From: Escherichia coli
Lineage (GTDB): Bacteria > Pseudomonadota > Gammaproteobacteria > Enterobacterales > Enterobacteriaceae
DNA length: 64,000 nt
Strand: one strand, 5' to 3'
Assembly (NCBI RefSeq): GCF_024502345.1
Contig: NZ_JALDNN010000001.1
Positions 774 through 5,130 of the stretch are shown here, piece by piece. The position numbers and the translations under genes are program-made. The first letter of the stretch is position 1. Each line of letters begins with the position of its first letter. The notes under the pieces were generated by a model. It was not told where the DNA came from. It did no database searches and saw only the letters and a list, made by a program, of their open reading frames with translations.

Positions 774-1286
774 ATGCAATTAGATGAACAACGCCTGCGC
801 TTTCGTGACGCGATGGCCAGCCTGTCGGCAGCGGTAAATATTATCACCACCGAGGGCGACGCCGGACAATGCGGGATTACGGCAACGGCCGTCTGCTCGG
901 TCACGGATACACCACCGTCGCTGATGGTGTGCATTAACGCCAACAGTGCGATGAACCCGGTTTTTCAGGGCAACGGCAAGTTGTGCGTCAACGTCCTCAA
1001 CCATGAGCAGGAGCTGATGGCACGCCACTTCGCGGGCATGACAGGCATGGCGATGGAAGAGCGTTTTAGCCTCTCATGCTGGCAAAAAGGTCCGCTGGCG
1101 CAGCCGGCGCTGAAAGGTTCGCTTGCCAGTCTTGAAGGTGAGATCCGCGATGTGCAGGCAATTGGCACACATCTGGTGTATCTGGTGGAGATTAAAAACA
1201 TCATCCTCAGTGCAGAAGGTCACGGACTTATTTACTTTAAACGCCGTTTCCATCCGGTGATGCTGGAAATGGAAGCTGCGATTTAA
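774..1286 (+). CDS. hpaC: 4-hydroxyphenylacetate 3-monooxygenase reductase component (flavin:NADH reductase)
   Basis: 170-aa ORF starting MQLDEQRLRFRDAMASLSAAVNIITTEGDAGQCGITATAVCSVTDTPPSLMVCINAN, a flavin reductase-like sequence of the length I recall for HpaC; AGGAGG-like RBS (gcaggaggtt) a few nt upstream of the ATG. Confidence 0.8.
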   Translation: MQLDEQRLRFRDAMASLSAAVNIITTEGDAGQCGITATAVCSVTDTPPSLMVCINANSAMNPVFQGNGKLCVNVLNHEQELMARHFAGMTGMAMEERFSLSCWQKGPLAQPALKGSLASLEGEIRDVQAIGTHLVYLVEIKNIILSAEGHGLIYFKRRFHPVMLEMEAAI

Positions 1287-1293
1287 GCTCCAG

Positions 1294-1328
1294 CCCCTTC
1301 ACGTATTCGTCGAAGGGGCATTTTTATT
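1294..1328 (+). terminator. Rho-independent terminator candidate downstream of hpaC
   Basis: GC-rich inverted repeat ccccttcacgtattcgtcgaagggg followed by a T-run (cattttta). Confidence 0.5.
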
Positions 1329-1371
1329 GTGATCTCAATCACATATCCACCCGATGAATAATTCTTGCCCA

Positions 1372-1420
1372 ACCGCTCACCGCCATTCCTGACCGCTTAC
1401 ATCCCTAAAATAACCACTCA
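1372..1420 (+). promoter_or_regulatory. Putative BtsR (YehT) response-regulator boxes in the btsT promoter
   Basis: Three direct repeats ACCGCTCA / ACCGCTTA / ACCACTCA spaced 12-13 nt apart upstream of btsT; matches the ACC(G/A)CT(C/T)A repeat reported for the yjiY promoter (from memory). Confidence 0.4.
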
Positions 1421-1678
1421 GTTATTTACCTTACTTTACGCGCGCGTATCTCTGGCAACATCACTGCAGGATAGCGGTCAATTTACCTCCTCAAACGCAA
1501 CGCAAACCTAGAACGGCTTCGGCCTATGATTAACAAATTACTCTATGGATTTTGGTTTGCAGGAAGGCAGCAAGTAAGTGAATCCCCGGGAGCTTACAAC
1601 AGTAAGTGACAGGGGTGAACGAACGCAGCTGCCGCACCTGTAAGCCAAAAGACGACGAGTAAAATGCCAGGTTTTACT

Positions 1679-3829
1679 ATGGATACGAAAAAACTATTCA
1701 AGCACATACCCTGGGTGATTCTCGGAATCATCGGTGCATTCTGCCTCGCGGTAGTTGCATTACGTCGGGGGGAGCACGTCAGCGCCCTGTGGATCGTGGT
1801 CGCCTCTGTGTCGGTGTATCTGGTGGCGTATCGCTACTACAGTCTGTACATCGCCCAGAAGGTGATGAAACTCGACCCCACGCGCGCGACGCCTGCGGTT
1901 ATTAACAACGACGGTCTGAACTACGTTCCGACCAACCGTTACGTGTTGTTTGGTCACCACTTCGCCGCTATCGCCGGTGCTGGTCCGCTGGTTGGTCCGG
2001 TTCTCGCCGCGCAGATGGGCTACCTGCCTGGCACGCTGTGGCTGCTGGCGGGGGTAGTGCTGGCCGGTGCGGTACAGGACTTTATGGTGCTGTTTATCTC
2101 CTCTCGCCGTAACGGCGCATCTCTCGGTGAGATGATCAAAGAAGAGATGGGACCAGTACCGGGGACTATCGCGCTGTTTGGCTGTTTCTTAATCATGATC
2201 ATCATCCTCGCCGTTCTGGCGCTGATTGTGGTTAAAGCCCTGGCCGAAAGTCCGTGGGGTGTCTTCACCGTTTGCTCAACCGTACCAATTGCGCTGTTTA
2301 TGGGTATCTATATGCGCTTTATTCGTCCGGGGCGTGTAGGTGAAGTCTCTGTCATTGGTATCGTGCTGCTGGTTGCCTCTATCTACTTCGGTGGCGTGAT
2401 TGCTCACGATCCGTACTGGGGTCCGGCACTGACCTTTAAAGACACCACCATTACCTTCGCGCTGATTGGCTATGCGTTTGTTTCCGCGCTGCTGCCGGTG
2501 TGGCTGATCCTCGCACCACGCGACTATCTGGCAACCTTCCTGAAAATCGGCGTTATCGTCGGCCTGGCGCTGGGTATCGTGGTGCTGAACCCGGAACTGA
2601 AAATGCCTGCGATGACCCAGTACATTGACGGTACTGGCCCGCTGTGGAAAGGCGCTCTGTTCCCGTTCCTGTTCATCACCATCGCCTGTGGTGCGGTATC
2701 TGGCTTCCACGCACTGATCTCTTCCGGTACGACGCCGAAACTGCTGGCTAATGAAACCGACGCGCGTTTCATCGGTTATGGCGCAATGCTGATGGAGTCC
2801 TTCGTGGCGATTATGGCGCTGGTTGCTGCGTCCATCATCGAACCAGGTCTTTACTTCGCGATGAACACCCCGCCTGCTGGCCTTGGCATCACCATGCCTA
2901 ACCTGCATGAAATGGGTGGCGAGAACGCGCCGATCATCATGGCGCAGCTGAAAGACGTTACCGCACACGCGGCAGCGACCGTCAGCTCCTGGGGCTTCGT
3001 GATTTCGCCAGAACAGATCCTGCAAACCGCGAAAGACATTGGTGAGCCTTCTGTCCTGAACCGTGCAGGTGGTGCGCCGACGCTGGCGGTAGGTATCGCT
3101 CACGTGTTCCACAAAGTGCTGCCGATGGCTGACATGGGCTTCTGGTATCACTTCGGTATTCTGTTCGAAGCACTGTTCATCCTGACCGCGCTGGATGCGG
3201 GTACCCGTTCTGGCCGCTTTATGTTGCAAGACCTGCTGGGTAACTTCATCCCGTTCCTGAAAAAAACCGACTCTCTGGTTGCCGGTATCATCGGTACTGC
3301 GGGCTGTGTGGGTCTGTGGGGCTACCTGCTGTATCAGGGCGTGGTCGATCCGCTGGGCGGCGTTAAGAGCCTGTGGCCGCTGTTCGGTATCTCCAACCAG
3401 ATGCTGGCAGCCGTGGCGCTGGTACTGGGCACCGTTGTGCTGATTAAGATGAAGCGCACCCAATACATCTGGGTTACTGTTGTTCCGGCTGTATGGCTGC
3501 TTATCTGCACCACCTGGGCGCTGGGCCTGAAACTATTCAGCACCAACCCGCAGATGGAAGGCTTCTTCTACATGGCAAGCCAGTACAAAGAGAAGATTGC
3601 TAACGGTACTGACCTGACGGCGCAGCAGATTGCCAACATGAACCACATCGTTGTGAACAACTACACCAACGCAGGCCTGAGTATTCTGTTCCTGATTGTG
3701 GTGTACAGCATCATCTTCTACGGTTTCAAAACCTGGCTTGCGGTGCGTAACAGCGACAAACGTACTGACAAAGAAACTCCGTACGTTCCAATCCCGGAAG
3801 GCGGCGTGAAGATCTCTTCGCACCACTAA
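1679..3829 (+). CDS. btsT: CstA-family pyruvate/H+ symporter (BtsT/YjiY)
   Basis: Track ORF 1664..3829; likely start at MDTKKLFKHIPWV (716 aa). Large polytopic membrane protein of the carbon-starvation CstA family; synteny with yjiX-yjiA. Confidence 0.9.
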   Translation: MDTKKLFKHIPWVILGIIGAFCLAVVALRRGEHVSALWIVVASVSVYLVAYRYYSLYIAQKVMKLDPTRATPAVINNDGLNYVPTNRYVLFGHHFAAIAGAGPLVGPVLAAQMGYLPGTLWLLAGVVLAGAVQDFMVLFISSRRNGASLGEMIKEEMGPVPGTIALFGCFLIMIIILAVLALIVVKALAESPWGVFTVCSTVPIALFMGIYMRFIRPGRVGEVSVIGIVLLVASIYFGGVIAHDPYWGPALTFKDTTITFALIGYAFVSALLPVWLILAPRDYLATFLKIGVIVGLALGIVVLNPELKMPAMTQYIDGTGPLWKGALFPFLFITIACGAVSGFHALISSGTTPKLLANETDARFIGYGAMLMESFVAIMALVAASIIEPGLYFAMNTPPAGLGITMPNLHEMGGENAPIIMAQLKDVTAHAAATVSSWGFVISPEQILQTAKDIGEPSVLNRAGGAPTLAVGIAHVFHKVLPMADMGFWYHFGILFEALFILTALDAGTRSGRFMLQDLLGNFIPFLKKTDSLVAGIIGTAGCVGLWGYLLYQGVVDPLGGVKSLWPLFGISNQMLAAVALVLGTVVLIKMKRTQYIWVTVVPAVWLLICTTWALGLKLFSTNPQMEGFFYMASQYKEKIANGTDLTAQQIANMNHIVVNNYTNAGLSILFLIVVYSIIFYGFKTWLAVRNSDKRTDKETPYVPIPEGGVKISSHH

Positions 3830-3915
<86 letters not shown>

Positions 3916-3959
3916 CCTAGCCCGGACCTTCCGGGCTTTACGCATATCTGGAAGGCAAA

Positions 3960-4163
3960 ATGTTTGGTAACTTAGGACAGGCAAAAAAATATCTCGGCCA
4001 GGCGGCGAAGATGTTGATTGGCATTCCAGACTACGACAACTACGTCGAGCATATGAAGACCAACCATCCCGACAAGCCGTACATGAGCTATGAAGAATTC
4101 TTCCGCGAACGCCAGAACGCGCGCTACGGCGGCGATGGTAAAGGCGGTATGCGCTGTTGTTAA
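3960..4163 (+). CDS. yjiX: Small conserved protein YjiX (DUF466-like)
   Basis: 67-aa [70 protein letters not shown]; conserved partner position after the cstA-like gene. Confidence 0.8.
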
Positions 4164-4173
4164 TGGAGAGAGC

Positions 4174-5130
4174 ATGAACCCGATTGCAGTTACCCTACTC
4201 ACCGGTTTTTTAGGCGCGGGCAAAACTACCCTGCTGCGCCATATTCTTAACGAACAACACGGCTACAAGATTGCCGTGATTGAAAACGAATTCGGCGAAG
4301 TCTCCGTTGATGATCAATTGATTGGTGATCGCGCCACGCAGATCAAAACGCTGACCAACGGCTGCATCTGCTGTTCGCGCTCCAACGAGCTGGAAGACGC
4401 ACTACTCGACCTGCTGGATAATCTCGATAAGGGCAATATTCAGTTCGATCGTCTGGTCATTGAATGCACCGGCATGGCCGATCCTGGCCCGATTATTCAG
4501 ACCTTTTTCTCCCATGAGATTTTATGCCAGCGCTACCTGCTGGACGGCGTGATTGCGCTGGTGGATGCGGTACATGCCGATGAGCAGATGAACCAGTTCA
4601 CCATCGCCCAGTCACAGGTTGGCTACGCCGACCGTATTCTGCTGACTAAAACCGACGTCGCAGGCGAAGCAGAAAAACTGCGTGAACGCCTGGCGCGCAT
4701 CAACGCCCGTGCACCGGTCTACACCGTTACCCACGGCGACATCGACCTGGGCCTGCTGTTCAACACCAACGGTTTTATGCTGGAAGAAAACGTCGTCAGC
4801 ACCAAACCGCGTTTCCACTTTATCGCGGATAAACAAAACGATATTTCGTCGATTGTGGTGGAACTGGATTACCCGGTAGATATCAGCGAAGTTTCCCGGG
4901 TGATGGAAAACCTGCTGCTGGAATCGGCGGATAAACTGCTGCGTTACAAAGGGATGCTGTGGATTGACGGCGAACCTAACCGCCTGCTGTTCCAGGGCGT
5001 CCAGCGCCTCTACAGCGCCGACTGGGACAGGCCATGGGGCGATGAAAAACCGCATAGCACGATGGTGTTTATCGGGATTCAGTTGCCGGAGGATGAGATT
5101 CGGGCGGCGTTTGCGAGGTTGAGGAAGTAA
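4174..5130 (+). CDS. yjiA: CobW/HypB-family P-loop GTPase YjiA
   Basis: Track ORF 4090..5130; likely start at MNPIAVTLLTGFLGAGKTTLL (Walker A GxxGAGKT); CxCC motif (GCICCSRSNE) typical of COG0523 GTPases. Confidence 0.9.
   Translation: MNPIAVTLLTGFLGAGKTTLLRHILNEQHGYKIAVIENEFGEVSVDDQLIGDRATQIKTLTNGCICCSRSNELEDALLDLLDNLDKGNIQFDRLVIECTGMADPGPIIQTFFSHEILCQRYLLDGVIALVDAVHADEQMNQFTIAQSQVGYADRILLTKTDVAGEAEKLRERLARINARAPVYTVTHGDIDLGLLFNTNGFMLEENVVSTKPRFHFIADKQNDISSIVVELDYPVDISEVSRVMENLLLESADKLLRYKGMLWIDGEPNRLLFQGVQRLYSADWDRPWGDEKPHSTMVFIGIQLPEDEIRAAFARLRK

Follow-up and report, generated by a model that had tools for sequence, protein, structure and literature searches.

The three direct repeats at positions 1372-1420 of the Escherichia coli DNA analyzed here (the window, a stretch of 64,000 nucleotides or 64 kb) are very probably, as judged from the sequence, the BtsR operator of the btsT promoter. 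The operator is a real and already known regulatory element and, apart from the conservation of its distal repeat M1, represents ordinary biology. It is the cis-element that couples the sensing of external pyruvate to the synthesis of a high-affinity pyruvate importer in E. coli. External pyruvate is bound by BtsS, and BtsR, in which a LytTR domain is joined to a CheY-like receiver, has btsT as the sole target that it activates (PMC5936718; PMC5431176). The dependence of btsT on BtsR has been shown in K-12 and in Salmonella (PMC5936718; PMC5431176). Expression of btsT also needs cAMP-CRP and is restrained post-transcriptionally by CsrA (PMC5936718; PMC5431176; PMC7730263). The features of the btsT region in the window are as follows.

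To 756: 3' end of hpaB, upstream of btsT
774-1286: hpaC, upstream of btsT
1293-1319, + strand: intrinsic terminator hairpin of hpaC, followed by a U-run (UUUUUAUU), the whole element extending to 1326; dG -19.1 kcal/mol, z -5.2
1329-1344, unstranded: CRP-type site TGTGATCTCAATCACA, a perfect palindrome of the form TGTGA-N6-TCACA
1372-1379, + strand: distal repeat M1, ACCGCTCA, a perfect match to ACCRCTYA
1392-1399, + strand: central repeat M2, ACCGCTTA, the same in K-12 and in the YehT-bs oligonucleotide; one half of the published pair
1413-1420, + strand: proximal repeat M3, ACCACTCA, also the same in K-12 and in that oligonucleotide; the other half of the published pair
1453-1461, + strand: candidate extended -10 element TGgCAACAT (TG at 1453-1454, hexamer at 1456-1461), proposed from conservation
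1679-3829, + strand: btsT (yjiY), the regulated gene, encoding a 716-aa pyruvate/H+ symporter
3960-4163: yjiX, after btsT in the same order as in K-12
4174-5130: yjiA, a GTPase gene, after yjiX in the same order as in K-12

The gene context therefore identifies the window as belonging to the hpa-positive E. coli type and places the repeats in the btsT (yjiY) promoter. DNA that is 99.6% identical carries the RefSeq annotation 'pyruvate/proton symporter BtsT', and the product is a CstA-family paralogue that scores below the CstA equivalog cut-off. The btsS and btsR genes have other chromosomal locations, beyond the 64 kb window. An in-frame ATG is present 15 nt upstream of the btsT start (1664-1678, + strand), in K-12 as well, and would give a 721-aa ORF rather than one of 716 aa; across genera it is the MDTKK start of BtsT that is conserved. 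Only about 3 bp separate the end of the hpaC terminator from the CRP-type site, and about 50 bp separate it from M1. Strain 2020CK-00188 has the same terminator-like sequence before the CRP site, yet its upstream gene is an amino acid deaminase gene. Between btsT and yjiX there is a REP/BIME-like palindromic cluster (3835-3940), which includes a sub-threshold Rfam match to naRNA4 at 3880-3937 (46.3 bits against a gathering score of 59.5).

The array extends from the first base of M1 through the last base of M3 (...cccaACCGCTCAccgccattcctgACCGCTTAcatccctaaaataACCACTCAgtta...) and lies on the btsT coding strand, 259-307 bp 5' of the btsT start. The original prediction had placed direct repeats in this position upstream of btsT, and exact matches on the + strand were found for all three. 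The M1-M2 spacer is 12 nt and the M2-M3 spacer 13 nt, giving start-to-start distances of 20 and 21 bp; with repeats of 8 bp this is the arrangement of a LytTR-type operator (direct repeats of 8-13 bp with spacers of ~11-13 bp). The 8-mer ACCRCTYA alone has 12 matches in the 64 kb window by pattern search, against 6.07 +/- 2.4 expected. When three copies 19-22 bp apart with at most 4 mismatches in total were sought on both strands of the 64 kb window, the M1-M3 array was the only one found, the sole further scan entry (at 1350, with 3 mismatches) being one that overlaps it. Elsewhere in the window, the best triple of a 450-bp chunk had 6-10 mismatches (274 chunks), 500 shuffles of the btsT promoter gave best triples with 4-10, and a rough expectation for a phased triple arising by chance is ~2e-6 per window. 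CCCGATGA at 1350 might be a fourth, upstream copy, but with 3 mismatches it was not considered significant.

The site described by Kraxenberger et al. 2012 (J Bacteriol 194:4272) is said to be a direct repeat of the motif ACC[G/A]CT[C/T]A in two copies with a 13-bp spacer, and was reportedly defined by gel shift and mutagenesis, not by nuclease footprint. M2 and M3 form such a pair with a 13-nt spacer, and a third copy is located 12 nt upstream. The Jung laboratory has used an oligonucleotide named 'yjiY YehT bs', GGGG-CCTTTGCCGCTCAACCGCAAAACTGACCGCTTACATCCCTAAAATAACCACTCAGTTA-GGGG (PMC4847170), that covers all three repeat positions of K-12. The last 36 nt of its core occur once in the window, at 1389-1424, where they are identical at 36/36 positions and cover M2 and M3. 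The distal third of the oligonucleotide has diverged from the window, with CCGCTCA kept. It had been predicted that the repeats match the response-regulator site of the yjiY promoter, and the 36-nt identity to the K-12 oligonucleotide bears this out. Its core maps to 1389-1424, and therefore the published site is not located elsewhere. The same prediction regarded the repeats as expected biology, which is a fair description of a site already known. Alignment with MG1655 showed that M2, M3 and all of the sequence to 1536 are nearly identical to the window, while there is strong divergence in the M1-M2 spacer and in the 28 bp that precede M1. The K-12 distal copy, GCCGCTCA, has a mismatch at position 1 (GCC vs ACC) and keeps 7/8 positions. 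Since the published two-copy definition fits M2 and M3 and the distal copy of K-12 is GCCGCTCA, the perfect M1 belongs to this strain's allele.

Conservation of the array across the Enterobacterales was examined by a BtsT protein scan with one genome per species, which gave 80 loci from about 30 genera. The 80 BtsT-like genes found are 90-100% identical to the BtsT of the window over the best aligned segment. In nearly all of them the region upstream of btsT has three ACCRCTYA-like copies at intervals of 20/20 or 20/21 bp; the spacing is 20/20 in 52 promoters, 20/21 in 22 and 21/21 in 4. The ACC.CT positions are nearly invariant in all three copies, with 73-78 of 78 distinct promoters agreeing and near-maximal information content (A in 75-77 sequences, C in 78, C in 78, R, C in 73-78 and T in 78), while the spacer columns of these promoters mostly hold less than 0.9 bit. 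For M1 the columns are A 75, C 78, C 78, G/A 68/10, C 77 and T 78. The distal M1 is about as conserved as the published pair M2/M3. G at the first position of M1, the K-12 state, is rare outside E. coli (3/78). The triples in other genera were first located by matching the motif, which is circular, and therefore the null distributions given above and a motif-blind MAFFT alignment of 26 genera served as controls. In this alignment M1-M3 are in register and the invariant columns are the CC..T of each repeat, the half-sites of the CRP-type site and TGnCAnnnT at 1453-1461. A fourth in-phase copy is present in some genera, for example at loci L023, L031, L052 and L073. BtsR motifs have been reported to be conserved and functional across genera (PMC5552118).

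Within E. coli, the window-type distal region is present in 2253 of 5426 complete E. coli genomes and the K-12-type in 2632 (about half), 589 of the latter at only 80-90% identity. The btsT promoters of E. coli are mosaics over 1345-1391 (loci L001 and L082-L086): both the stretch of 28 bp that separates the CRP site from M1 and the 12-nt M1-M2 spacer come in two or three unrelated, recombining versions. Strains U1 and AGR6137 have a K-type upstream sequence and a window-type spacer, and the O157 strain ATCC 43889 has a third, unrelated upstream sequence followed by ACCGCTCA and a K-type spacer. As upstream neighbor, different strains have hpaC, tsr, an amino acid deaminase gene or a hypothetical-protein gene. 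The CRP half-sites, the M1 core CCGCTCA and all distances are unchanged in every representative E. coli locus. Fixed sites amid variable flanks are the pattern that would be expected of selected sites in unconstrained DNA.

It is possible, if rather unlikely, that the BtsR site consists of the two proximal copies only (1392-1420) and that M1 is a non-functional look-alike. The published definition reportedly has two copies and a 13-bp spacer, and K-12, in which the system works, has the position-1 mismatch in its distal copy, as do the roughly half of E. coli genomes with the K-12-type allele (2632/5426). LytTR sites are also generally described as two repeats (PMC4064291; PMC4847170). However, the conservation of M1 equals that of M2/M3 in about 30 genera, with a fixed 20-bp phase and a fixed distance of 44 bp from the CRP site, and M1 is kept inside the otherwise unalignable flanks of the E. 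coli haplotypes. The K-12 variant itself retains 7/8 positions, and the binding-site oligonucleotide of the Jung laboratory includes the distal copy (PMC4847170). These observations weigh against this reading.

A different assignment of the repeats, to the paralogous LytTR regulator YpdB (PyrR) or to some other factor in place of BtsR, is very improbable. E. coli does have two related pyruvate-responsive LytTR regulators, and YpdA/YpdB influence btsT expression (PMC5936718), but the YpdB motif GGCATTTCAT is unrelated to ACCRCTYA and in surface plasmon resonance a PyjiY fragment with the repeats was used as the 'no binding' control for that protein (PMC4847170). Furthermore, Salmonella is without YpdAB, keeps the array and needs BtsSR for btsT expression. 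Chance clustering, or a scar left at the hpa gene-island junction, is an extremely unlikely origin of the repeats. Enrichment of the 8-mer by itself in the window is only about twofold, and the hpaC terminator ends ~50 bp upstream of M1, but the window has no second phased triple, the null distributions fall far short of this one, and the array is present whatever the upstream neighbor (hpaC, tsr, amino acid deaminase or hypothetical-protein gene) and in distant genera. The comparative data refute this reading, and it can be considered excluded.

The CRP-type site begins 44 bp upstream of M1 in 69/79 promoters and 43-45 bp upstream in 9 more. The centre-to-centre distances in the series CRP-M1-M2-M3 are 40, 20 and 20-21 bp, and thus all of the elements would lie on one helical face. 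The activity of the btsT promoter is crp-dependent and is lost in a crp deletion (PMC7730263; PMC5431176). With a putative CRP site of conserved position and the reported crp dependence, the promoter is of the CRP co-activated kind.

The promoter itself is a candidate placed by conservation: in the motif-blind alignment G1454, C1456, A1457 and T1461 are invariant across 26 genera, which points to a -10 element at 1453-1461 and a start near 1468. With such a start the centres of the repeats would be near -52, -72.5 and -92.5, and that of the CRP site near -131.5. A scan of 1250-1720 for strict sigma-70 and terminator consensus sequences gave nothing and missed the hpaC terminator too. The lack of a strict sigma-70 consensus is what an activator-dependent promoter would be expected to show. 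A sigma-54-like interpretation of TGGCAACATCACTGCA (1453-1468) was set aside, since its downstream GC element is not conserved (K-12 does not have it, and in other genera it is displaced) and LytTR regulators are without the ATPase domain needed for sigma-54 activation. Two TTTAC elements, ATTTACC and CTTTACG, are located 11 bp apart at 1424-1440 (+ strand) between M3 and the candidate -10. Both are kept in Escherichia, Citrobacter, Klebsiella, Enterobacter and relatives, and not in Kosakonia, Phytobacter and Erwiniaceae, and could represent a -35 or UP-like region or be bound by another factor.

It is proposed that external pyruvate is sensed by BtsS and that activated BtsR monomers then occupy the repeats. 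The repeats are two helical turns apart, so bound BtsR would be found on one face of the DNA. Monomers of the paralogue YpdB bind two sites sequentially and cooperatively (PMC4847170), and by analogy BtsR probably does so too. BtsR on the proximal repeat (~-52 from the inferred start), just upstream of a weak extended -10 promoter, would recruit RNA polymerase, and cAMP-CRP at 1329-1344, on the same face and 40 bp upstream of M1, would act as co-activator. Under the combined control of BtsR and CRP, btsT would be made only with pyruvate present and preferred carbon sources scarce. In this scheme we infer the binding of the distal copy, the stoichiometry and the polymerase contact.

The leader of btsT contains an ERIC/IRU repeat at about 1541-1660 (+ strand), between the conserved leader and the ribosome-binding region. 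The ERIC2 primer matches 19/22 positions at 1600-1621 and the complement of ERIC1R matches 20/22 at 1578-1599. The element folds as one long hairpin (dG -60.7 kcal/mol, z -8.6). K-12 does not have the insertion, Escherichia sp. E1V33 and E. albertii have it at the corresponding position, and ~2060 of the 5426 E. coli genomes cover at least 80% of window positions 1250-1720, with the ERIC element included. An Rfam search of the promoter and leader gave no meaningful match, except for a weak V_AS5 match over the ERIC element (1541-1659). The ERIC element could affect mRNA stability or control by CsrA. Leaders ~70-140 bp longer, without the ERIC core, were found in Citrobacter portucalensis, Intestinirhabdus alba and an Enterobacterales MAG (L013, L021 and L074). 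The leader region of btsT may be a recurrent insertion site.

Confirmation of the operator as such adds nothing new; it does show an intact element in a strain with an hpaC neighbor, a diverged flank and an ERIC-bearing leader. The added value is modest and comparative, in that M1 and the distance to the CRP site are kept about as strictly as the published pair, which suggests that it is the distal site of the reference strain, where the operator was defined, that is atypical and weakened. What looks to be beyond the literature located is the apparent three-site array locked to the CRP site and the ERIC element in the btsT leader. The chances seem evenly balanced that the operator is a conserved three-site (sometimes four-site) array with a two-helical-turn phase, 40 bp centre to centre from the CRP site, with the distal site weakened (GCC for ACC) in K-12 and about half of E. 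coli, while strains like this one have a consensus distal site and a leader ERIC hairpin. Because the alleles differ in the distal site and the ERIC element, the induction of btsT by pyruvate could have another threshold, cooperativity or pulse shape from one natural allele to the next.

The closest known system is the yjiY site of K-12. It shares the gene, the placement with respect to the CRP site and conserved leader, and the sequences of M2, M3 and their 13-nt spacer. The differences are in the distal copy, which is GCCGCTCA in K-12 and a perfect ACCGCTCA in this strain, and in the M1-M2 spacer and the 28 bp upstream of M1, which are of another haplotype. The upstream neighbor is tsr in K-12 but hpaC in this strain. 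The distance from the site to the start codon is 136-184 bp in K-12 and 259-307 bp here, the greater length being due to the leader's ERIC insertion of ~120 bp. The YpdB (PyrR) site of the yhjX promoter is similar in that a paralogous LytTR regulator uses direct repeats about two helical turns apart. However, it is a direct repeat of GGCATTTCAT with an 11-bp spacer, and the sequence of the repeat is unrelated to that of the BtsR site. The yhjX oligonucleotide (PMC4847170), as read in this analysis, also has a degenerate third copy, GTCATTCATT, upstream of the pair. LytTR regulators generally bind direct repeats of 8-13 bp that are ~12 bp apart (PMC4064291; PMC4847170). The operators AgrA P2/P3, VirR boxes, ComE, PlnC/D and AlgR are alike in having imperfect repeats of this size and separation with a weak promoter just downstream. 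Such operators usually have two repeats, whereas btsT has three in-phase copies, or four in some genera, and a CRP site at a fixed distance.
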